In this document: positions 1,856-63,520 of the stretch, one piece after another
Numbering within the stretch: the stretch's first letter is position 1
Layout of the letters: each line of letters starts with the position of its first letter
Source: Acidimicrobiales bacterium
Lineage (GTDB): Bacteria; Actinomycetota; Actinomycetes; Mycobacteriales; QHCE01
Reading direction: 5' to 3'
Length of the DNA: 64,000 nucleotides
Assembly: GCA_003243955.1 (NCBI GenBank)
Contig: QHCE01000043.1
Location: forward strand, 5,475 to 69,474
The notes under the pieces: model-generated
Databases searched by the model: none
Told to the model about the DNA's origin: nothing
Seen by the model: the letters and a program-made list of their open reading frames with translations, nothing else
Translations under genes and position numbers: made by a program

Positions 1856-2494
1856 ATGGAGCTCAAGGTCAAGCCGAGCTTAAGTGATCCAGAGCAGGTA
1901 GACTTTGAACGGTCACGCATAATCACGGTACCCAACGCGCTGAGTATGCTCAGAATCGCCGGAGTTCCGTTGTTCGTGTGGCTCATCGTGGGTCCTGCCG
2001 CCTACGAATGGGCCGCGGTTGTGCTTATGGTTAGTGGTTTCACTGATTGGTTAGACGGTTACCTTGCTCGTCGTCTGAGCCAAACCAGTCGGCTCGGGCA
2101 GTTCCTTGATCCGCTCGCTGATCGGCTCTACATTTTCGCGTCGCTGGTGGCGCTGCTTGTCTCTTCGATCACGCCAATTTGGTTGGTGGCCGCGATTGTG
2201 GTTAGAGATGTGTTGCTGCTATGCACAGGACCAATTTTGTTCCGCCGGGGGTACCGATCGCTAGCTGTGAACTTCGTGGGAAAAGCCGGGACGATGGGGC
2301 TACTCATCGCAATACCGATGCTGCTGTTAGGCGCATCGCAGGTACCGTTACATGCGGCGATAGCAATTGCCGCCTGGGCCTTCGCGCTGTGGGGAGTGGC
2401 GCTGTACTGGGTGGCTGCGGCACTGTACTTCACGCAACTACTTCAAATTATGCGCGGCACGCTTCCGTCAGCCTTGGGCTCATCAAACGGATAG
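1856..2494 (+). CDS. CDP-alcohol phosphatidyltransferase (PgsA2/cardiolipin synthase-like)
   Basis: DWLDGYLARRLSQTSRLGQFLDPLAD matches D-x2-DG-x2-AR-x8-G-x3-D-x3-D. Same position as Rv1822 relative to gcvH. Confidence 0.85.
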   Translation: MELKVKPSLSDPEQVDFERSRIITVPNALSMLRIAGVPLFVWLIVGPAAYEWAAVVLMVSGFTDWLDGYLARRLSQTSRLGQFLDPLADRLYIFASLVALLVSSITPIWLVAAIVVRDVLLLCTGPILFRRGYRSLAVNFVGKAGTMGLLIAIPMLLLGASQVPLHAAIAIAAWAFALWGVALYWVAAALYFTQLLQIMRGTLPSALGSSNG

Positions 2495-2538
2495 CAAAAG
2501 ACACCTGACCAGCTCTGATCCACGGCAAAGGAAAACCT

Positions 2539-2955
2539 ATGGCACACACCTTCGCAACTCCACAGGAGCTGCGCTACACCCCAGAACATGAATGGGTAGC
2601 CCCCCCGAAAGACCTAGGAGAGAACAAAACGCTCCGGATCGGAATAACCGACTTCGCACAAGATGCGCTCGGTGACGTCGTGTACACCAATCTCAGTCCG
2701 GTCGGCACAAAGGTGATCGCCGGCGAGCCTCTAGGGGAGATTGAATCCACCAAAAGTGTCTCTGACATATATTCCCCGCTCAGCGGCGTTGTCACCAACC
2801 TAAACCCTGCGCTACAAGATCAGCCTGAACTGATAAACCGTGAACCTTACGGTGAGGGTTGGCTGCTTGAACTGCGCGTGGAAGAGCTGGCTGGTATGGA
2901 CGCGCTGCTGGATTCCACGGAGTATGGCAAGCTAACAAGTAACCAAGCTCAGTAA
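2539..2955 (+). CDS. gcvH: Glycine cleavage system protein H
   Basis: 138 aa with lipoyl-lysine motif ESTKSVSDIYSPLSG and AAGGA upstream of the ATG. Confidence 0.95.
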   Translation: MAHTFATPQELRYTPEHEWVAPPKDLGENKTLRIGITDFAQDALGDVVYTNLSPVGTKVIAGEPLGEIESTKSVSDIYSPLSGVVTNLNPALQDQPELINREPYGEGWLLELRVEELAGMDALLDSTEYGKLTSNQAQ

Positions 2956-2976
2956 CGACAAGTGAGGCGTTTCACT

Positions 2977-3450
2977 ATGGCCAGCAGCTCCGACCGCTCT
3001 CAGGAGCGGGACGCACCCCAGCTCGACACCACCTCCACTATGATGCTCGGTGCAATAGAGGAACTGGATTCCGACAGCGCTGCCGGCACGGAGAATGCTC
3101 AACACGCTGCGAGTCTGCCAGCTAATGCCGCGTTGCTTATTGTGCGTCGTGGACCTAACGCAGGCAGCCGCTTTCTGCTAGATAACGAGCTGACGAATGC
3201 GGGGCGGCACCCCGATAGCGATATTTTTCTCGATGATGTCACTGTTTCCCGCCGACATGCCGAGTTTCAACGTGAAAACTCAGTGTTTACCGTACGAGAC
3301 CTTGGCAGTTTAAATGGGACATACGTTAATCGCGAGCGGGTTGAGTCAGCAACATTGGCCAGTGGAGATGAAGTTCAGATCGGCAAGTTCCGACTGAGCT
3401 TCCTGCTCAGTGCGGCCGCTGGGCGTGGCAGCCGTTCTGTGACGCGTTAA
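2977..3450 (+). CDS. garA: FHA-domain regulator GarA/OdhI
   Basis: C-terminal FHA domain (GRHPDSDIFLDDVTVSRRHAEF..VRDLGSLNGTYVN) and an N-terminal TTST phospho-threonine motif. ATG 2977 is preceded by GAGG. Confidence 0.9.
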   Translation: MASSSDRSQERDAPQLDTTSTMMLGAIEELDSDSAAGTENAQHAASLPANAALLIVRRGPNAGSRFLLDNELTNAGRHPDSDIFLDDVTVSRRHAEFQRENSVFTVRDLGSLNGTYVNRERVESATLASGDEVQIGKFRLSFLLSAAAGRGSRSVTR

Positions 3451-3490
3451 TCCGGTTCGAGATGAGTACTACAAGAATGAACACGCCAGA

Positions 3491-4297
3491 GTGAACACCG
3501 AACGCGCAGCGGTGCCTTCGTGCTCCAGCATTGGTGAGGTACTCGCTGAGTTGCGCACCGATTTTCCGGATACCACGATCTCCAAGCTACGTTTCTTGGA
3601 GTCTGAGGGTCTGGTTGAGCCTGAGCGCACCGCCGCCGGCTACCGTAAATACTCTGACCAAGACATAGCACGACTGCGATATGTGTTAACGGCGCAGCGG
3701 GACCATTACTTGCCGTTGAAAGTCATTCGTGACCATTTAACCTCCATAGACCAAGGCGTGCTGCCGCGTGTGCAAACCACCCCATCTGGCAGTGAAACCG
3801 CTATCCCGCGAATTCTGCGAGCATTAGAGCCGCTCGCAGAGCTAAACCGACCGGATGAACCAGAGGTAATGCATCCGCAGGCAGCATCTAACCCCGAGGA
3901 GAGCCAGTCAGGTTTATTCACTCGTGAGCAGCTGGTGGTCCTTGCCGGAGTCGATGAGGAGTTGCTCGGGCTCCTAGAGCAGTTCGGCCTCATTGCCGCC
4001 GACCGTGACGGCGGCTTTGCCGAGCACGATGTCGAAATTGCGCAGGCAGCGGTAGGGTTGGCGGGCTACGGCATTGAACCTCGGCATTTGCGGGCGTTCC
4101 GTGGCGCCGCTGACCGAGAAGTCGGTTTATTCAAACAGGTCATTGCACCGTTGGTACGTCGAAGCAAACGACGAGACCTATCCCAAGTTGCCGAAGGTGA
4201 CGGCGACCTGGCACGCAGTACAGCCACTCAGCTGTGTGCGCTCTCAGTGCAGCTGCATGCCGCACTGACGCGCTCGGCGCTCCGCCGAATCCTCTAA
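3491..4297 (+). CDS. MerR-family regulator (Rv1828/FtsR-like)
   Basis: N-terminal MerR HTH SIGEVLAEL..TISKLRFLESEGLVEPERTAAGYRKYS. Conserved position after garA. Confidence 0.8.
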   Translation: MNTERAAVPSCSSIGEVLAELRTDFPDTTISKLRFLESEGLVEPERTAAGYRKYSDQDIARLRYVLTAQRDHYLPLKVIRDHLTSIDQGVLPRVQTTPSGSETAIPRILRALEPLAELNRPDEPEVMHPQAASNPEESQSGLFTREQLVVLAGVDEELLGLLEQFGLIAADRDGGFAEHDVEIAQAAVGLAGYGIEPRHLRAFRGAADREVGLFKQVIAPLVRRSKRRDLSQVAEGDGDLARSTATQLCALSVQLHAALTRSALRRIL

Positions 4298-4467
4298 CGG
4301 ACGAGGGGCTCGTCGGAAGCAGGTGTTGCGGTGTGGGGTTCCTCCTAGCCCAGTGTAGGTTCGGAACAGACACAAGGGACTCGGCTAGATGTACGTGCAC
4401 TAGATAAAAGTCCTACGTGCATACGACATAGCTGGTGTTTCAGGGCCTCTCAACAGCTGGAGCGGGA

Positions 4468-4968
4468 GTGAAAGAGCTCAACGTGGTGGGCGTTAGGGTC
4501 GAGCTGCCCTCTAATCAGCCCATTGTTTTGCTGAAGGAGGTCGATGGCGAACGCTACCTACCGATCTGGATTGGACCAGCCGAGGCCACAGCTATAGCGC
4601 TTGTTTGTGACCCCCCGGATCATCCCGCGGCGCGACCGTTGACGCACGATTTGTTCACCGACGTACTCAAAAAACTAGATGCGCCGCTGCGCAAGGTAGA
4701 AATTACTGAACTCACTGAGAACGTGTTTTATGCTGACCTGTTACTGGGTGAGGGGAAGCTTCGTATCAGCGCTCGGCCATCAGATGCCATCGCGCTCGCA
4801 CTACGCGCTGACGCGGAGATTTTCTGCTCTGAAGAAGTGCTCAAACTAGCTGGAATCCTCATTCCTGAAGATCAGAAGGACGACCAGGAAATCGAGGTGG
4901 AGCGGTTCCGCGAATTTCTGGATAATATTTCCCCCGAAGACTTCGCCGGACCGAACGCTACTTCGTAA
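4468..4968 (+). CDS. Bifunctional nuclease family protein (DUF151, Rv1829-like)
   Basis: VVGVRVELPSNQPIVLLKE..RYLPIWIGPAEATAIA..SARPSDAIALALR is colinear with Rv1829-type proteins. GTG 4468 follows GGAG. Confidence 0.8.
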   Translation: MKELNVVGVRVELPSNQPIVLLKEVDGERYLPIWIGPAEATAIALVCDPPDHPAARPLTHDLFTDVLKKLDAPLRKVEITELTENVFYADLLLGEGKLRISARPSDAIALALRADAEIFCSEEVLKLAGILIPEDQKDDQEIEVERFREFLDNISPEDFAGPNATS

Positions 4969-5283
4969 CAATGTAAGCACCCATCCTGGTTTGACTACAA
5001 TTTGCTCATGATATCGATTACGACTTCCTGCCATAATTACTGAACATGGCAAGGGCTATATGTGCCGCTAACGGCCAAAATAACTCCGACAGGTTGTGGC
5101 GGTGGGGACGAATGAGTGATGAAAAAGCGCCGGCTTTGCCAGACACGCCGAGCCAACAAGTTTGACCAGCGGGCAACCTACGAATACCGTCAATCAGGCT
5201 CGTCACTGATAGCAAGGAACGTCCGCTCTGGGCAGTCTCAGCGTTAGTTCGACGTAGCGCGAAACGCGAAAGGTCGTCAACAC

Positions 5284-55041: not shown

Positions 55042-55160
55042 TTCGCGTTTTCGCTGTACCGAAGCTGTTCCGTGCGTCACTATAAGAAGCAGACACCTAA
55101 CAGCTCGCTATTCTCCCCGCGGGGTTAGAACTAGTTGTGTAATGGCTATCGGAGCATGTC

Positions 55161-58100
55161 TTGTCAGATACCGGTGCATCGCAGTCCGATGCCGCCCCCC
55201 ATAGCCGAGAGCAACAGGCACTTGCTTCAGCTTTGGCTGAAACCCGTATAGCCCTCGGGCTATACCAGCACGATGTCGCGAATGGCCTAGGGCTGGGGAT
55301 CCATAGGATCAGAGAGGTTGAAGGCGACTGGACGAGTGCCCAACTTACAAGAATTGGATTTTCCTTTCGAATACTGAGCTATTTTGTTGAGCAGGCAGCT
55401 GACCCAAACCGCCTACTTGCCGATAAAAATCGTACTGCTGTTGATCAGGGCCTTGAGAGCATCCGCAGTCATGCAGAAATTGTGCGCAATCAGCTTCGCG
55501 AGGAGCGGCGGGACGAGCTAGGCGCCATTTTATCTGTGGACGAAGAACTCGCTGAGCATAAGTTGCGTTTAGCTTTCTCGCTACGAGAGCTGCGAGAAGT
55601 CAACCATGTAAGTAAAAAAAATATTGTGGAAAAAGTCTCAAAGCTCGAGCTAGTTTCTCTAAAAGAGTACGAGATGGGCATCGGTTACCAAATAGCGGAC
55701 CTTATCTTGATAAGAGAAATAATAGAAAAATTTCCTAGCCAGCATTCAAGCTACAGCTACATATATGAAGATTTAATAGCCAGTGTTGGTGCCCTCACTG
55801 GGAATAGGCGAAGAGCCACGCTCGCAGCAGAACAAAGACGCGCTAGAGCGGATCAGGTAGCTAGCCCGCAAGCTGCTAAAGAAAAGAGTAGCGGAGTATC
55901 GCAAAACCTGTTGGACACCGATCCGTCGTTAGCTGGTATTACTAACGCTTCATTGCTCGACGATTCACCGGACAATGAGACACAAGTCGTTAGTACGGCT
56001 ATCGTAGCTGGAAGAAAAGCTTGTAAAGAAACGCAAAGCGGCGCGGCGCGCTTTCTAGCTGATGAACTAAACCCTAGCGAATTTCGACATTTCATAACTT
56101 TCATTCAAGAGTTTGAGCGTCACGGAATAATTAAAAGTTTTTCTGGTGTGTTCTACACTAGATTTCTGCTTAATCGGTATATGCCTTATCTGGATGCCCC
56201 TAAAACCCAGCTGGATGATTTTAAGGAAATACTTGACAAACGAGCTAGTGAGATACGGCAAGAGCGCACTGTAAAGCTGCTGGCTCGCTTGGGTTATTCT
56301 GTAGAAGATGCAGTTCATCTAAATGATGAAACCATGCGAGCCGTAGAAATCGCCATTTCACTGCAGCACGTTCGGGAGATTCCTTTTCTTACACTTTCCA
56401 CAGTGGCTAAAAAAATAAATACACTAGCTGGCAATAAACCCCTTGCCAACGTTGGTAAGCTCTCCTACCTCGAAAACACAGCTCGATACAATCTTCGCCA
56501 GATTAAACTGGCTCAACTATTTTTAGAGGCGTGTCAAGTTTCTGAAGATATCAGTGCTGACCCAACTCTTATCCATGAAGCGGTCATTGCTCTGCTAACA
56601 GCACAGAGTCGTCGGCCTCCACGGCGAATACGCCATCGGATAGGTGATCCGTCCACTGAAGACAAGCGTCGAGGCGCTGTTGATACTCGGTATGCTTCTT
56701 TAACTGCCGTGCAGGCTCAAATACTCGGTGATCTAACGAGCGCTGGATTCACGGTAGAAGAATTTTTCCCTCATGTGAAAAACCTGATATCCGACCAAGA
56801 GAAGAAAATAGATAGCGACCGAAGGACTGCACTACGAAGAAAACTTAGAAAGTTTACCGAGCTTTTTCCGGAAGTTCCTCACACTTCTTGGGAAGATATC
56901 TACGGCGAGGAAGTGGATCATCGACTCTACATTGCGCTCGCTCTCAACAAGCTGCGAATAACTTCTGACCCAGTGCTTACAAAGGATCAACTTACCCGCG
57001 CCTGTGCTATCAAAGGTGAAGATATAGCCTATTTTTATCAGTACATAAAGTCCATAGAGGAGGCAACATGGCCGGATCTTCCCCCACAACACGCGGTCAA
57101 CCGTGTTTTGGAGATCCTCGTCGCCGACGAAGATACTATTGAAGAAGTCAATAAAAGAATTGTTGCTCTACATACAAGAAAGCGACGAGGGATAGAAACC
57201 ATCCCTGTGCCAAGCGAGAGCTCTGTTTCAGTAGACCCACAGGAAAATCTACACTATAGTTTAGAAATTTTTAGCTGGCTTGCCGCAATGCATCTCGAGC
57301 ACAGACATCTGCAAAGCGGCCGCCAGGGTGACTACATCGCCGCATTTGCGGCAGAGATTGAACTTAATGAGGCTCAACTCAGGCATCTTTTAGACCCGTA
57401 CAGCCGTGAAGAGCATACTGTAGATAACAAAATTTCCGAGCCTAACGCAACTATGGCAGAGCGATGGTACGCAACCAACGCGACTATTGAACAAATTACT
57501 TCTTACGTAGCGCCGGATTTAGCGGAACATCTTCCAGAGGCCCGCGAAGAGCATACAGTAAATCAGGGTTCTGATGAGTCCGATGAAGAATACCGCGCAA
57601 TATGGCGAAATATCGGCAGACTGGTGAATGCTCATTCAAACTATCTCGGGGATATGATTCCAGAGGGTGCATCCCGTAGAGAAGATCAGATACGCGGATT
57701 CCTTAAGCGTGAGCCCTTCCAAAATATCGTTAGCGGAAATGGTGCGGGTGATCGAGAATCGTTACTAGTCCTTTTAAACAGCTGGCGCGAAATCTTGGAC
57801 GCAACCCGCTTTACTCGTGGGCACGGTTCTTCCGGAGTGACCGATCCCGCCCCTGCTCGCCAGACCTCTTCTGATTCCGACCCATCTGCACCAAGCCCTC
57901 TCCAACCAGCAGCGGAAGGATCACCAGCTCTAGGCCCAGCTCCCGCTGGCCCGGTAGCAACATCACCGGTGCTTCCGGTGGCCGATGCTTCGGGCTGGAA
58001 GGCATATGGACGAGTCTTTGCCGAGTATCAGCGAGTTATGCGTATAAGAAATATCAGTCTGGCCCACTATCTAGGCTGCTCGTCGCGCGAGATTATCGAT

Positions 58101-59579
58101 ATCCACAACGGTCACGGTTATCAACGTCCTGAGCTTATCGCCGGCGCTACCTCATTTTGGTTAGATCCTGACGCGACGTATCAACGCCGGGCCACGGCGG
58201 TATCAGATTCCGGCTGGGACGAGTTCGGGCAGCTGGTGCGGACACTCCGCGAGGTAAACGGACACTCAAGAGGTGCGTTCGCCGAGATTATCAACAGCTT
58301 CGATGTGGCCGTGGCGGAGATCGAGAGCGGCGCCGGCGCCCAATACCCCTCCGAGGTTTCCGCCATTACTGCGAGCGTTTCTCAGTTTGTGGCTGTTCAT
58401 GAAAGACCTCGAGGACAAGCCGCTGCCGCACCCGCCCCGCCAGACGTGAGTGCCCCGGTCGTTGCTCCCGTCGCGCGGCAGCCTGCCAGCGAGCGCGACG
58501 ATGAGGCTTATCAGCGGTCTCTTGAAGGCCGCATAGGTGATCGAACAATAGTCGACGCCGGATGGCCTAACCTCATAGTGCTGCTCCGCCGACAGCGGCT
58601 AAACACCAAGCTAACTGTCGAAGGCTGGGCAACCAGTACGGGCACCTCGGCGGAACTTGTGCGGCGGATGGAAGAATCGGGAGGGGGTCATGAGAACAAG
58701 AACCTGCGCGCCGTACTACAACTCGCACAGGAATTAGGCGAGGAAGATCGCGCTCGGGCGATGTTGATCGTAGGCGAGGTGAAACGATTAAAAAGGGCCA
58801 ACATTGAGCGGCAGCTACGCCGCACACAGATTGTGCTCCATTTCCCCGGGTGGGATCGAACCGCGTGGCCCGGATGTGGTGCGTTCCTCCAGCAGCAACG
58901 CGAGCTCGCCGAGCTAACCGTCGAAGAGCTGGCAAACCTCTGTGGGGTGCCAGTAGCCGCATTTCAAGAGATATGGTGCGGCGGGGGCTACGAGCCATCC
59001 TTCCGAGACGCAATCGATCCGGGCCGGATAGCCTTTCGTGATCTTCGGAACGACAGCGCTACGGTTTTAGACAAACTCCGTGAGCTCAATAACAGCACGG
59101 GCAACGATCCCGACCCGCTATGGGAGGAACTACATACTCTTCTACATAACGAGCAGACCCGCGATTACCACAGCTATCGACAGATACTCGAAAGCCGGAA
59201 GCAGTCTCCGGTGAGAGCAGGAGACTGGCAAGACCTGATCGTGCTTGCCTACCAAGCTCGCCGGCGTAGCGGCCCACGACGAGAGCCTGTAGCGACAACC
59301 GCTGGACTACCAGTGGCCACACTGAAAGACATCGAGAGCGGCGTAGCCCCACTTGACCACGTTAGCTACCAGGCCATTGTAGCGCTGTTTTGGGCTACTA
59401 AGTCTGGCGACGATATACCGACAGACATCAAAGAGAAACTTCAGCGGCTCAAAACGGCCCTCGCCAACCAAGCCGGCGGTGAGCTACCCCCTTCGGCTCC
59501 ACCGAGCTTCCGCCCCAGAGCTCTTCCCGATTTCCCATCTTCTAAGCATTGCCTTAGCGGGCACTCGCATCGCAGATAA
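55161..59579 (+). CDS. Giant (1472 aa) protein of tandem degenerate XRE-type helix-turn-helix-like units; function unknown
   Basis: An uninterrupted 4419-nt ORF running through a ~39% GC core. Five clear W-prefixed HTH units at residues 946-1415, at least five weaker units in the N-terminal 640 residues and two P/A/S-rich linkers. TTG start follows CGGAG; the start is uncertain. Confidence 0.75.
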   Translation: MSDTGASQSDAAPHSREQQALASALAETRIALGLYQHDVANGLGLGIHRIREVEGDWTSAQLTRIGFSFRILSYFVEQAADPNRLLADKNRTAVDQGLESIRSHAEIVRNQLREERRDELGAILSVDEELAEHKLRLAFSLRELREVNHVSKKNIVEKVSKLELVSLKEYEMGIGYQIADLILIREIIEKFPSQHSSYSYIYEDLIASVGALTGNRRRATLAAEQRRARADQVASPQAAKEKSSGVSQNLLDTDPSLAGITNASLLDDSPDNETQVVSTAIVAGRKACKETQSGAARFLADELNPSEFRHFITFIQEFERHGIIKSFSGVFYTRFLLNRYMPYLDAPKTQLDDFKEILDKRASEIRQERTVKLLARLGYSVEDAVHLNDETMRAVEIAISLQHVREIPFLTLSTVAKKINTLAGNKPLANVGKLSYLENTARYNLRQIKLAQLFLEACQVSEDISADPTLIHEAVIALLTAQSRRPPRRIRHRIGDPSTEDKRRGAVDTRYASLTAVQAQILGDLTSAGFTVEEFFPHVKNLISDQEKKIDSDRRTALRRKLRKFTELFPEVPHTSWEDIYGEEVDHRLYIALALNKLRITSDPVLTKDQLTRACAIKGEDIAYFYQYIKSIEEATWPDLPPQHAVNRVLEILVADEDTIEEVNKRIVALHTRKRRGIETIPVPSESSVSVDPQENLHYSLEIFSWLAAMHLEHRHLQSGRQGDYIAAFAAEIELNEAQLRHLLDPYSREEHTVDNKISEPNATMAERWYATNATIEQITSYVAPDLAEHLPEAREEHTVNQGSDESDEEYRAIWRNIGRLVNAHSNYLGDMIPEGASRREDQIRGFLKREPFQNIVSGNGAGDRESLLVLLNSWREILDATRFTRGHGSSGVTDPAPARQTSSDSDPSAPSPLQPAAEGSPALGPAPAGPVATSPVLPVADASGWKAYGRVFAEYQRVMRIRNISLAHYLGCSSREIIDIHNGHGYQRPELIAGATSFWLDPDATYQRRATAVSDSGWDEFGQLVRTLREVNGHSRGAFAEIINSFDVAVAEIESGAGAQYPSEVSAITASVSQFVAVHERPRGQAAAAPAPPDVSAPVVAPVARQPASERDDEAYQRSLEGRIGDRTIVDAGWPNLIVLLRRQRLNTKLTVEGWATSTGTSAELVRRMEESGGGHENKNLRAVLQLAQELGEEDRARAMLIVGEVKRLKRANIERQLRRTQIVLHFPGWDRTAWPGCGAFLQQQRELAELTVEELANLCGVPVAAFQEIWCGGGYEPSFRDAIDPGRIAFRDLRNDSATVLDKLRELNNSTGNDPDPLWEELHTLLHNEQTRDYHSYRQILESRKQSPVRAGDWQDLIVLAYQARRRSGPRREPVATTAGLPVATLKDIESGVAPLDHVSYQAIVALFWATKSGDDIPTDIKEKLQRLKTALANQAGGELPPSAPPSFRPRALPDFPSSKHCLSGHSHRR

Positions 59580-59606
59580 ACCGCGTCGACGGCTGGGCCC
59601 TCAGTG

Positions 59607-60770
59607 CTACTTTCGGCGGGATTTTCTCTTTCCCGTTCCGCTGGGTGCATTGGAACTCCGCGGAGCGGCGTAACCTTCTGAGTACTGGGTCGTGACTTTT
59701 TCCGGGTCATCCGGTAGGCCAAGGGCTTCGATCAAATTTGGCACAATCTTGGTTGGTGGCGCTATTTCCCCCGATTGATACCGTGAGAAAGTCGATGGAG
59801 CGATTCCCAGTTTTCCAGCCACTGAGGTAGCGGTCCTGCCACCACGTTTCAGAGCTGCCTTGATCCAATTCCCCATGTGCCCAGCGGGAAGAACCCTCGA
59901 CTGGCTCGGGGTTAACTGTCTCACTGGCGGAACAACAGCGAGCTGAGCATCGAACTCATCCTGCCCGAGACGCCGAATCGCTTCGGGCGCCAGCGTCTCT
60001 ATCAGAGCGCTCACTTCTGGCGGAGGTCCAACACGCCCTAATTCATAGCCAGAAAGCATTGCGGCGCCGCATCCGAGCAGCTCCGCGCATTCCTTTTGAC
60101 TCAAACCCAAAGCCCGTCGGATCACCCCAATACGATGCCCTTGTGTCCGGTACGCCAGCGATTGCGACAAGCGCTTACCTCGAGGAACCGATCTTCTATT
60201 CAAGTTCGCGATATGCCCTGGTCTACCGTGACCGTGGGGATATCGCTCCTTAACTTGCTCCACAGCTTCCATGACCTGTTTCGCCGTAAGCGACGGTTTC
60301 GTGGCTTTGACAATTCGGCGTATGACTTCCTCTGGTACGTCCGACTTTCTGCTCCGATATCGGGATAGCTGCGAAGCGGAGATTTTGATGATTCCCGCCA
60401 GCTCTTCCGCGGTCATCCCGCTATCGCCTAAGGTTTCATGGATCCAACGGGCCGCATATCCTGCCGACGGGGTCCTCGTCCGTGAATAACCTCGCCGCGG
60501 TTGCGGAGCCGGGACATCGGCTAACCTAACAGCGAATTCCTCTTGGCCGATTCTGGCTATCACAAGCCCGGCAAGGTAATTGATTGTGGCTACCGTCTCG
60601 GGATGTAGGGGTATTTTGCCGGATTCATATCGCGACACAGTTGCGGCATCGCGACCAAAGAACGCACCGAAAGGGCCTTGCTTTAGGTCCATAGCTTGAC
60701 GGATGACTCGGACGCGATGACCCAGGCGGCTATCCCCCCTGTTAGCCATCGGCGTAGAGGGCTGCGTCAC
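59607..60770 (-). CDS. Four-HTH (XRE-type) protein built from an internally duplicated two-HTH module
   Basis: Residues 17-160 and 210-352 align unit for unit (GHRVRVIRQA../GHRIGVIRRA.., ..GQEEFAVRLADVP/..GQDEFDAQLAVVP, AGYAARWIHE../AGHMGNWIKA..). The GTG start overlaps the ABC gene stop (GTGA). Confidence 0.8.
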   Translation of the reverse strand: MTQPSTPMANRGDSRLGHRVRVIRQAMDLKQGPFGAFFGRDAATVSRYESGKIPLHPETVATINYLAGLVIARIGQEEFAVRLADVPAPQPRRGYSRTRTPSAGYAARWIHETLGDSGMTAEELAGIIKISASQLSRYRSRKSDVPEEVIRRIVKATKPSLTAKQVMEAVEQVKERYPHGHGRPGHIANLNRRSVPRGKRLSQSLAYRTQGHRIGVIRRALGLSQKECAELLGCGAAMLSGYELGRVGPPPEVSALIETLAPEAIRRLGQDEFDAQLAVVPPVRQLTPSQSRVLPAGHMGNWIKAALKRGGRTATSVAGKLGIAPSTFSRYQSGEIAPPTKIVPNLIEALGLPDDPEKVTTQYSEGYAAPRSSNAPSGTGKRKSRRK

Positions 60771-62635
60771 GGCACGCTAACCACTGCGAATTGGGCCGCG
60801 TACAGCTCGTTGTACAACCCACCTTCGGCTAGAAGCTGCTCGTGGGTGCCCCGCTGCGCGATCCGCCCATCGTCGACCACCAGAATCTGGTCAGCACCCC
60901 GAATAGTGGAGAGCCGGTGGGCGATCACTAGCGCGGTACGGTCGGCCAACGCCTCCTCCAGCGCCCGCTGCACCGCTAGCTCGGATTCTGAATCCAGATG
61001 TGAGGTAGCTTCGTCGAGAATCACAATGGACGGCGACTTGAGCAGCAGCCTCGCGATGGCCAGGCGCTGCTTCTCCCCACCGGAGAGCCGATAGCCGCGC
61101 TCCCCCACTACCGTGTTGAGTTTGTCGGGAAGAACACGCACCATATCAGCAATCTGAGCACGGCCAAGCGCTTCCCATATCTGCTCGGCGCTGGCGTGCG
61201 GCGCCGCATATCGCAGGTTTGCCTCAATCGTGTCGTGGAACATGTGGGGGTCTTGCGAAACCACGCCGATGCTGCCTCGCAGTGATTCTTGAGTTACATC
61301 TCGCACATCCAGGCCATCGAGGAGTATCGCGCCGCCGGTGACGTCGTACAGCCGAGGTACCAGCTGCGCGATGGTGGTCTTTCCCGCGCCCGAGGGGCCT
61401 ACTAGCGCGATGATTTGGCCCGGTTCGGCCAGGAAACTCACCCCGCGCAGCACCGGCCGGTTCGAGGTACGGTCAAGAATCGCGACGTCCTCCAGCGAAG
61501 CCAGCGATACCTCTTTTGCTGTGGGGTAGGTGAATTGCACGTCGTTAAATTCGATCCGTCTGGCGCCCAAAGGTAGCTTTTTTGCGCCAGGCTTATCCGT
61601 CACCATCGGTGGCAGATCCAGTACTTCGAATACGCGCTCGAATGACACCAGCGCACTCATCACGTCCACCCGCACGTTCGACAGCGCAGTAAGCGGCCCA
61701 TACAACTGGGCCAGCAGCAACGCCAGCGCGACCACCGTGCCGGCATTGAGCTGGCCGTCAAACGCTAGCCACCCACCCAGGCCGTACACCAGTGCCTGTG
61801 CCAGGGCGGCCACCAGCGTCAACGCAATGAAGAACATTCTGCTGTACAGCGCAGACTGCACACCGATATCGCGCACTCGAGTGGCGCGTTTACCAAATGA
61901 TTGATTCTCCTCATCCGCGCGCCCGAACAACTTCACCAACATGGCACCGGAAACGTTGAACCGCTCGGTCATGGTGGTGTTCATCGACGCGTTGAGTTGC
62001 AGCTGTTCCCGGGTAATAGCTTGTAGCTTGCGCCCAAACCAGCGAGCTGGCAGCACGAAAACCGGTACTAGTATCAACGACAGCAGCGTGATCTGCCAGC
62101 TCAGCGTGGCCATCACGCCCACGGTCACGATCAGTGCGATGAAGTTAGAGCCGACACCCGATAATGTGCCGGTAAACGCCCGCTGCGCTCCGATCACGTC
62201 GTTGTTCAGACGAGAGATCAACGCGCCGGTCTGCGTCCGGGTGGAAAACGCTATCGGCATACCGAGCACATGATCGAAAACTTTGCGGCGCAGATCCAGA
62301 ATCAAGCTCTCCCCAATGCGGGAGCTGTACCAACGCTCAGCCATGGATAGCACGGCAGCCAGTAGCGCCAAGCCCGCAATGACGGCGGCAATGGTCACCA
62401 CCAGACCGCGGTCGCGGTGTTGCACGATGGCGTTGACCACCCGGCCAGCTAGCACTGGAGTTGCCACCGAGGCTAGCGCGGCGGCGGCCAAAATTACGAA
62501 CATCACGATCAGTTGCCGGCGGTATGGCTTCGCATACTCTAAAACCCGGCGCACGGTGACCTTGGATACCGCTTGATTGGCCACCACTGAATCGTCGCGG
62601 TACGCCATGCGCCGAAGCGATGAATGACCCATCAT
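60767..62635 (-). CDS. ABC exporter, fused permease/ATPase (MsbA-like half transporter)
   Basis: 622 aa with six N-terminal TM segments. Walker A GPSGAGKTT, signature LSGGEKQRLAIARLL, Walker B IVILDEATSHLD. Confidence 0.9.
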   Translation of the reverse strand: MMGHSSLRRMAYRDDSVVANQAVSKVTVRRVLEYAKPYRRQLIVMFVILAAAALASVATPVLAGRVVNAIVQHRDRGLVVTIAAVIAGLALLAAVLSMAERWYSSRIGESLILDLRRKVFDHVLGMPIAFSTRTQTGALISRLNNDVIGAQRAFTGTLSGVGSNFIALIVTVGVMATLSWQITLLSLILVPVFVLPARWFGRKLQAITREQLQLNASMNTTMTERFNVSGAMLVKLFGRADEENQSFGKRATRVRDIGVQSALYSRMFFIALTLVAALAQALVYGLGGWLAFDGQLNAGTVVALALLLAQLYGPLTALSNVRVDVMSALVSFERVFEVLDLPPMVTDKPGAKKLPLGARRIEFNDVQFTYPTAKEVSLASLEDVAILDRTSNRPVLRGVSFLAEPGQIIALVGPSGAGKTTIAQLVPRLYDVTGGAILLDGLDVRDVTQESLRGSIGVVSQDPHMFHDTIEANLRYAAPHASAEQIWEALGRAQIADMVRVLPDKLNTVVGERGYRLSGGEKQRLAIARLLLKSPSIVILDEATSHLDSESELAVQRALEEALADRTALVIAHRLSTIRGADQILVVDDGRIAQRGTHEQLLAEGGLYNELYAAQFAVVSVP

Positions 62636-62972: not shown

Positions 62973-63248
62973 ATGCGAACCTTTCCGTTATCTGAAGCTA
63001 AAACTCACCTTTCCGAGATCGTCGAGGAGGCCGAAAATACCCATGAGCGGGTCACTATCACCAAACATGGCCATCCCGCGGTGGTACTGGTCTCCGCCGA
63101 TGATCTAGACGCGCTAGAGGAAACCCTGCATTGGCAATCCGTCCCGAATATTCGCAAGCGGATATCTGAAGCCGAGGTCGCGATTGAGGACGGCGAGGTG
63201 TACTCCACCAACCAGGTGCGCAACGAACTTGGGTTCCCACTGCGGTGA
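62973..63248 (+). CDS. Phd/YefM-family antitoxin
   Basis: MRTFPLSEAKTHLSEIVEEAENTHERVTITKHGHPAVVLVSADDLDALEETLHW. Confidence 0.85.
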   Translation: MRTFPLSEAKTHLSEIVEEAENTHERVTITKHGHPAVVLVSADDLDALEETLHWQSVPNIRKRISEAEVAIEDGEVYSTNQVRNELGFPLR

Positions 63249-63520
63249 GTAACCGCTATACCGTCGAAATAAGCGCCCCGGCCTTTCGTGACCTGCAACG
63301 CATTCCACGAAAGGTTGCTGAGGCCATTCTAGCTTTCTGCGATAGTCTGCTGACGGAAAATCCTCGACGAGTCGGAAAGCCACTTCGTGGTGAGTACGCT
63401 GGGCGTTTCAGCGCTCGCCGTGGCGACTATCGCGTGATGTATTCCATCACAGAAGAACTTAAGAAAGTGCGGGTGCTCGTCATCGATCACCGCTCTCAGG
63501 TGTACCGCTCTGGTCGATGA
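63245..63520 (+). CDS. RelE/ParE-family toxin
   Basis: 91 aa. ..NPRRVGKPLRGEYAGRFSARRGDYRVMYSI..VRVLVIDHRSQVY. 4-nt overlap with the antitoxin gene. Confidence 0.85.
   Translation: MSNRYTVEISAPAFRDLQRIPRKVAEAILAFCDSLLTENPRRVGKPLRGEYAGRFSARRGDYRVMYSITEELKKVRVLVIDHRSQVYRSGR

Follow-up and report, generated by a model that had tools for sequence, protein, structure and literature searches.

We analysed a 64,000-nucleotide (nt) stretch of contig QHCE01000043.1 (the window) from an uncultured actinobacterium, and describe here one of its genes, an open reading frame (ORF) at window positions 59607-60770 on the minus strand that encodes a 387-amino-acid (aa) protein made of four XRE-type helix-turn-helix (HTH) domains. 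The whole gene (59607..60770) comprises 387 codons and a stop; it begins with GTG, and its reading frame, length and basic C-terminus, GTGKRKSRRK, were found exactly as an initial annotation of the sequence had given them. A second possible start, an ATG at codon 8, retains all four domains as the GTG does. Upstream on the same strand lies the gene of a 622-aa ATP-binding cassette (ABC) exporter (60767..62635), a conserved core gene whose TGA stop codon overlaps the GTG start by 4 nt (GTGA). Because no intergenic space separates the two, the exporter gene is the probable co-transcription partner of the 387-aa gene. On the opposite strand a giant ORF of 1472 aa (55161..59579, plus) converges on it, with the two stop codons 27 nt apart and no terminator-like hairpin in the 27-nt spacer. 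The giant ORF encodes an N-terminal HTH and, at about residues 939-1415, five degenerate Trp-prefixed XRE-like units. Four independent assemblies keep the 1164-nt frame of the 387-aa gene fully open; L001 and L002 carry an identical gene, and in L005 it is intact across the 343 codons present, with 4 nucleotide differences.

The 387-aa protein belongs to the XRE/Cro-C1 HTH superfamily. When the whole protein is scanned against Pfam, it matches HTH_31 (PF13560) in four stretches (E = 3.8e-28; 98 bits against a cutoff of 27) and HTH_3 (PF01381) likewise in four (E = 2.3e-21). Each unit scanned alone also reaches a gathering cutoff, that of HTH_31 (27 bits) for A1, A2 and B2 (28.6, 31.5 and 29.8 bits) and that of HTH_26 (PF13443; 22 bits) for B1 (24.1 bits), so the four HTHs read from the sequence by the initial annotation are borne out. 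Unit A1 (residues 13-92; 60495..60734, minus strand as for all segments that follow) is an MqsA/YiaG-like five-helix XRE domain (HTH_31, E = 1.8e-6). In an AlphaFold2 model, for which the input alignment held 133 generic relatives, its helices span residues 14-26, 31-36, 42-50, 57-74 and 76-84 with a predicted local distance difference test score (pLDDT) above 90; residues 42-50 are the predicted recognition helix, and helices 4 and 5 form a long extension (..GQEEFAVRLADVP). Linker 1 (residues 93-101, RGYSRTRTP; 60468..60494) is predicted to be disordered, with pLDDT below 50 and a net charge of +3. Unit B1 (residues 102-180; 60231..60467) matches HTH_26 (E = 4.4e-5) and HTH_3 (E = 9.2e-5) and is modelled with helices at 102-117, 121-127, 132-139, 147-157 and 163-176; it carries Trp109 in helix 1, the motif SRY in the predicted recognition helix 132-139, and YPHG at its end. 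The linker between the two modules (residues 181-196, HGRPGHIANLNRRSVP; 60183..60230) is again predicted to be disordered and carries a net +3. Unit A2 (residues 197-284; 59919..60182) matches HTH_31 (E = 2.2e-7) and the HTH part of MqsA_antitoxin (E = 3.3e-7), with its predicted recognition helix at 236-244 and an extension, GQDEFDAQLAVVP, as in A1. After linker 3 (residues 285-292; 59895..59918), disordered in the model, comes unit B2 (residues 293-366; 59673..59894; HTH_31, E = 7.5e-7), in which Trp302 stands in register with Trp109, the predicted recognition helix spans 325-333, and the end reads YSEG. The chain closes with a basic tail (residues 367-387; 59610..59672; net +7) that is predicted to be disordered. 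The NCBI annotation of this gene holds only 269 aa (PZS09633.1): it begins at Met119, inside unit B1, and leaves out A1 and half of B1 (codons 1-118, window 60416-60770). This record is almost certainly too short, its start having probably been mis-called.

The internal similarity of the protein is far above chance. A BLASTP comparison of residues 1-195 with residues 196-387 returns one collinear alignment of residues 17-184 with 211-370, in which 58 of 168 positions are identical (35%; 87 bits, E = 2e-26). The initial annotation had proposed an internally duplicated two-HTH module on the strength of residues 17-160 and 210-352, and the alignment both upholds the proposal and extends beyond those limits. 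At the level of single units, A1 and A2 are 45% identical (E = 6e-17) and B1 and B2 32% (E = 1e-9), whereas similarity between A and B units is marginal (E about 0.01-0.02). Because like units are close and unlike units barely similar, the A-B-A-B order arose by duplication of a heterotypic two-unit module. The annotation had staked itself on self-similarity and on HTH profile matches, and both are present. The predicted recognition helices follow the same division, alike within a unit type and different between A and B: AATVSRYE and AAMLSGYE in the A units (pattern AA[TM][VL]S[RG]YE) against ASQLSRYR and PSTFSRYQ in the B units (pattern [AP]S[QT][LF]SRY[RQ]). The A type finds its best database match in P0106, a 98-aa MqsA/YiaG-like HTH protein, and the B type in P0145, a two-HTH, S24-peptidase phage-type repressor of which the first HTH is matched. 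The module duplicated in tandem joins an MqsA/YiaG-like HTH (A) to a Trp-containing HTH like the N-terminal one of phage-type repressors (B).

AlphaFold2 predicts four five-helix bundles whose cores score above 90, with a mean pLDDT of 80.5 over the protein. Between and behind them lie four segments of low confidence (residues 93-101, 181-194, 285-292 and 364-381; pLDDT below 50 in the linkers), and the predicted template modelling (pTM) score of 0.41 gives no confident packing between domains, so the model describes beads on a string. Structural searches of the PDB with Foldseek return only single-domain XRE proteins, among them ClgR (3f52), C.BclI (2b5a), C.Esp1396I, an XRE protein of M. smegmatis (5woq) and HipB, at template modelling (TM) scores, normalised to the target, of 0.7-0.83 and root-mean-square deviations of 1.5-2.4 A; no PDB chain found by Foldseek matches the four-domain layout globally. 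Scans of Pfam, NCBIfam, PADLOC and PHROGs detected no further domain in the 387-aa protein, whether for sensing, oligomerisation or enzymatic activity.

Close relatives of the protein are scarce. Besides the protein itself, a word-indexed search of 5.8 billion clustered proteins recovered a single generic protein with eight HTHs. When 1.84 billion representatives were searched exhaustively with HMMER, 152 matches reached E<=1e-3, two of which are specific, namely the protein itself and a frameshifted fragment from assembly L003; the others are generic tandem-XRE proteins of about 20-35% identity that are not orthologous. Two scans of viral contigs, and tblastn searches of plasmids and phages, turned up no relatives, and metagenome scans with alignments of the A-B module and of the giant family gave no useful carriers. 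As far as these searches reach, specific orthologues are confined to the actinobacterial lineage of metagenome-assembled genomes (MAGs) to which the window belongs. The closest relatives of the exporter gene (99%, 85% and 84% identity) are from Mycobacteriales MAGs, followed by Jatrophihabitans and Frankiaceae. The labels conflict here: the source proteins PZS09632/3 carry the name "Acidimicrobiales bacterium", while the closest ABC and aconitase loci come from Mycobacteriales, Jatrophihabitans and Frankiaceae MAGs, and the 99%-identical contig is labelled Mycobacteriales.

Synteny of the ABC exporter and aconitase genes holds in at least 15 relatives, where an interval of 0.5 to 5.9 kb separates the two. 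In the relatives sampled the interval carries unrelated cargo (an MpaB-like oxygenase, argininosuccinate synthase, a FAD/methyltransferase fusion, UDG, TetR, TauE, ROK or an ABC permease); in the window this variable spot corresponds to 55042-60770, and it was seen at loci L006, L008, L009, L014, L015, L020, L047 and others. A 315-aa ORF that follows the ABC gene in L006 was considered as a counterpart of the 387-aa gene and dismissed, since its sequence is unrelated. The 387-aa gene and the giant ORF occupy the interval only in the window's lineage. At third codon positions the GC content (GC3) is 0.68-0.71 in the aconitase and ABC genes, but 0.55 in the 387-aa gene and 0.41-0.59 in the giant ORF, and similarity to relatives ends a few codons ahead of the ABC stop codon. 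On these grounds (presence in one lineage, atypical GC3, the point at which similarity ends and the variable interval) the two genes look like one acquired insert. A search for mobile-element boundaries found neither flanking direct repeats nor tRNA genes at the locus, an Rfam scan of the locus returned nothing, and promoter-like and terminator-like sites are no commoner than in shuffled sequence. Upstream of the ABC gene, and divergent from it, is a toxin-antitoxin pair of the Phd/YefM-ParE type (window 62973-63520, plus strand), whose GC3 of 0.52-0.63 is likewise below that of the core genes.

Ordinary XRE repressors act as dimers or tetramers, which place two to four HTHs on palindromic operators. 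The analysis shows the domain composition, the duplication, the predicted fold, the charge, the lineage restriction and the genomic placement, and from these we propose that the 387-aa protein is a lineage-specific, single-chain, monomeric and tetravalent XRE-type DNA-binding protein whose most likely role is that of a transcriptional repressor within its own acquired locus, a reading that we hold at slightly better than even confidence. Covalent linkage would substitute for oligomerisation, so that one monomer could fill up to four half-sites, roughly 40-50 bp. Because the A and B recognition helices differ and follow the order A-B-A-B, the operator is predicted to be asymmetric, probably with a bipartite a-b element repeated directly. 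Further contacts to the backbone or the minor groove may come from the basic linkers and tail. Expression of the protein would be coupled to that of the ABC gene through the 4-nt overlap of start and stop, and by position its likeliest targets would be the convergent giant gene, the transcription unit formed by the ABC and 387-aa genes, or both.

The chain is strongly basic (pI 10.5, net charge +26), and all of its domains, all of its linkers and its tail are net positive. Together with the disorder predicted for the basic linkers and tail, the lack of a sensor or oligomerisation domain, the lack of discrete operator repeats nearby and a strongly low-GC acquired gene next door, such a charge is also what might be expected of an architectural, nucleoid-associated or silencing protein that binds with low specificity, bridging or coating DNA and possibly preferring acquired DNA that is richer in AT, for instance the centre of the giant gene with its GC content of 47%. 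All four units, however, score above family thresholds and show the canonical features of the XRE recognition helix that are typical of sequence-specific binders; A and B are strongly differentiated yet conserved pairwise, which suggests distinct specificities; and the gene is single-copy and restricted to a lineage rather than a conserved component of chromatin. We therefore consider an architectural role unlikely.

Several observations weigh against the repressor that we favour. To our knowledge no four-HTH XRE protein has been characterised experimentally. A search for operators yielded no convincing candidate: repeats in the three intergenic regions and across the locus are short, occur in two copies and are compatible with chance, so that the regulatory target given above is a guess. 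The geometry between domains in the AlphaFold2 model is uninformative, as the alignment was built from generic paralogues. Purifying selection on the gene is not statistically established. The L003 gene differs from that of the window at 15 positions, all within nt 306-1123, which change 8 amino acids; with 8 non-synonymous and 7 synonymous differences, the ratio of non-synonymous to synonymous substitution rates (dN/dS) is 0.40 (Fisher p = 0.078). Finally, the L003 contig carries a 1-nt deletion that shortens a run of four A to three at about position 1596 (gene nt 385, window about 60386) and splits the frame into ORFs of 208 and 187 aa. The deletion is absent from L001, L002 and L005, and L003 is an assembly from a single run; it may be an assembly error or a genuine frameshift specific to that strain.

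The frameshift, a dN/dS that is not significantly below 1, an NCBI record that covers only a truncated 269 aa and the lack of orthologues beyond one lineage among about 15 billion proteins would all agree with a decaying or non-functional acquired ORF that has no current role. We think this very improbable, for the frame stays open over its 1164 nt in four assemblies and the homopolymer deletion of L003 may be an error, and the four domains match HTH profiles and fold confidently despite a paralogue identity of only 32-45%, which means that the fold has been maintained over a long divergence.

The convergent giant ORF evolves very fast and is mosaic, and it is hypervariable between strains. 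In L003 the ABC gene is 100% identical to that of the window over 1216 nt; the last 545 aa of the giant ORF (2403-5117, a truncated allele) are only 83% identical (dN/dS 0.37, p = 9e-8). The 360 aa before them show no homology to the sequence in the window. In L004 (399-4304), where aconitase is 88% identical, the giant ORF is 38-48% identical and has two C-terminal HTH units rather than five; the 61 nt past its end show no sign of a partner like the 387-aa gene. The number of C-terminal units thus varies between alleles, with 2, 5 and at least 8 counted. These units are weak HTHs, matching HTH_31 at E = 0.002-0.02, below threshold, with hhalign probabilities of 60-93% for 4 of the 5. By eye the whole giant ORF had seemed to be made of HTH units, an impression that was given up since sliding hhalign comparisons found no HTH in residues of about 200-920. 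The central region (window 55341-57950, residues of about 61-930) has a GC content of 0.47 and a GC3 of 0.41, against a background of about 0.60 and about 0.68. It is predicted to be all-helical, gives an AlphaFold2 model of very low confidence (pLDDT 34) and is conserved in P0158 at about 38% identity; no domain was detected in it, and a profile search against PDB sequences was empty. A short direct repeat lies inside the giant ORF, with copies at 57404-57425 and 57542-57563 that are 86% identical and 138 nt apart and encode a duplicated peptide, REEHTV.

Such turnover invites a further explanation, in which the two genes would make up a conflict cassette, either toxin-antitoxin-like or anti-phage, with the giant protein as its effector and the 387-aa protein as its antitoxin, immunity protein or regulator; the fast evolution and the turnover would then reflect an arms race. 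The two genes share an atypical GC3 and apparently entered the variable gap between the core genes together, and the giant ORF has diverged to 38-48% identity where aconitase keeps 88%, and has a mosaic upstream region beside an ABC gene that is 100% identical. The HTH units resemble those of antitoxin types (MqsA, Xre-like-HTH), and a Phd/ParE pair is nearby. Yet searches of Pfam, NCBIfam, PADLOC, PHROGs and PDB profiles detected no toxin, nuclease, ATPase or other effector domain in the giant ORF, and the two genes are convergent and do not form an operon. The matches of the 387-aa protein to PADLOC RmrA and to antitoxin families are confined to HTH portions, leaving out the domains that define those families, and the scans of viral contigs, phages and plasmids that found no relatives also speak against a system of this kind. 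We would give it only a small chance of being correct.

Whether the two convergent genes share ancestry was a question raised by the initial annotation, which had seen a common Trp-prefixed layout in the B units and the C-terminal units of the giant ORF and concluded that the genes look built from related repeats. For the sequence in the window this layout is not borne out: in a joint alignment the Trp of the giant units falls six columns upstream of the Trp of the B units. Pairwise scores between B units and giant units (9-19 bits) are no higher than those between A units and giant units (0-24 bits), and profiles of only A or only B units score about 0-4 bits against the giant units of the window. 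The best similarity between the two proteins in the window is that of A1 to giant residues 1018-1099 (E = 0.003). As a statement about the window, relatedness therefore does not rise above background; for the L003 allele it stands in part. The upstream region of the L003 giant ORF holds two more Trp-prefixed units, and a segment of that ORF aligns with residues 163-385 of the 387-aa protein, that is A2, B2 and the tail (E = 7e-9). The segment begins TQWHRIGAL, where A2 has TQGHRIGVI; a B-like unit follows, which has its Trp in register, the SRY motif, Y-P-x-G-H and a basic tail. The B profile matches this unit at 20.1 bits (E = 4e-6), the sole match over the full profile, although it comes 18th among 472, behind unrelated XRE units. 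A specific common origin of the 387-aa protein and the L003 module, beyond membership in one superfamily, is thus suggested; we hold it as a suggestion because unrelated XRE units score as high or higher on the core.

The differences between alleles could be read more boldly, with the two genes forming a "poly-HTH cassette" that entered the variable spot as a pair and whose modules are duplicated, lost and possibly exchanged from one gene to the other, so that the specificity of DNA recognition diversifies fast; this would make it an unrecognised conflict system, perhaps one that recognises or silences invading DNA, rather than a simple regulator. Module turnover is supported by the L003 giant allele, which carries an A-like and a B-like module with a basic tail, and from C-terminal units that vary from 2 to 5 to at least 8. 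We regard the cassette as a long shot, and return to the single-chain repressor.

If the single-chain repressor is correct, the 387-aa protein would be a natural counterpart of engineered single-chain repressors: with four differentiated Cro/C1-type heads on one polypeptide, it could read a long asymmetric site without oligomerising. As a clean A-B-A-B case whose units fold well, it would offer a convenient way to study how tandem XRE domains recognise DNA, and it might serve as a scaffold from which programmable binders are designed. In nature it probably matters only within one uncultured actinobacterial lineage, and the more unusual biology of the locus is that of the neighbouring hypervariable giant ORF.

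The architecture places the protein in an uncurated class of tandem-XRE (poly-HTH) proteins, since its four units fill the chain save for the linkers and the tail. Having four HTHs is not unique: among the 134 nearest representatives, 71 carry 4 units or more, and in 36 of them the count is exactly 4. Members such as P0010-P0012 and P0015 (560-736 aa) and P0002 (586 aa, about 8 units by eye) consist of several XRE HTHs and little else. Most are homogeneous arrays with units about 74 aa apart; in the 387-aa protein, by contrast, the units are of two strongly differentiated types and lie 89-103 aa apart (against a median of 74 aa in relatives). An A-B-A-B pattern of similarity occurs in 3 of the 36 four-unit proteins and is strongest in the 387-aa protein (a contrast of 228 versus 89 and 82); P0056 (340 aa) and P0099 (345 aa) have four units in the same order. 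Tandem-XRE proteins abound in sequence databases, yet literature searches found no functional studies of them. A side product of these comparisons is P0013, an unrelated, actinobacterial-looking protein of 1510 aa with an uncharacterised poly-HTH architecture, in which a hydrophobic, Gly/Ala-rich N-terminal region and a long Pro/Thr/Ser-rich stretch accompany six near-regular repeats of about 92 aa, each with a Trp-containing XRE HTH, "G-x-W-L-A-D-I-R".

Several known families resemble parts of the protein. The A units are like the C-terminal HTH of the MqsA/YgiT antitoxins (PF15731, TIGR03830), including the Y-E-x-G-x-x-x-P motif, and the best PDB sequence match of the protein is MqsA (3fmy, E = 0.002). 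It is not an MqsA: the matches span profile positions of about 59-120 out of 127-131, the zinc-binding CxxC domain is absent (the only two cysteines, C228 and C234, both lie within A2), and no mqsR toxin gene is adjacent, the neighbours being the ABC exporter and the giant HTH ORF. An Xre-RES/ParS antitoxin (NF049845, PF20432) was likewise rejected, with 28.6 bits for NF049845 against a cutoff of 90 and no RES gene nearby. A LexA/CI-type S24 repressor was set aside because the 387-aa protein, unlike P0145, has no match to Peptidase_S24, and RmrA, a defence-system component of PADLOC, because the match is limited to HTH positions of about 7-66 in a profile of about 360-400 positions. Wmk, from the Wolbachia prophage WO, has two predicted XRE-family HTHs on one chain, which possibly arose by fusion or duplication (PMC6736233). 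Wmk is a phage gene of an insect endosymbiont with two domains, whereas our protein has four and an unrelated biology; membership in the Wmk family (NF047948) was rejected at 16.4 bits against an equivalog cutoff of 300.

In structure, each predicted domain superposes on ClgR (3f52), 5woq, C.BclI and C.Esp1396I, which carry one HTH per chain. Such single-domain XRE regulators and C-proteins are dimers or tetramers, in contrast to the four domains on one chain seen here; C.Esp1396I was solved as a tetramer on its operator, according to the title of its PDB entry. The closest model for how the protein may work is given by the engineered single-chain tandems of 434 repressor, lambda Cro and LacI, in which covalent linkage of HTHs of the Cro/C1 type takes the place of dimerisation. 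Duplication of the HTH domain is stated to suffice for DNA binding by single-chain repressors (PMC10096509), and titles cited in that paper (its refs 40 and 41) describe recognition of symmetric or asymmetric operators by single-chain 434 repressors. Those constructs are artificial, with two identical or nearly identical domains and known operators, whereas the 387-aa protein is natural and has four domains of two types. It is an orphan heterotypic A-B-A-B chain of four HTHs: not a new type of system, but an unusual arrangement of a very widespread domain.

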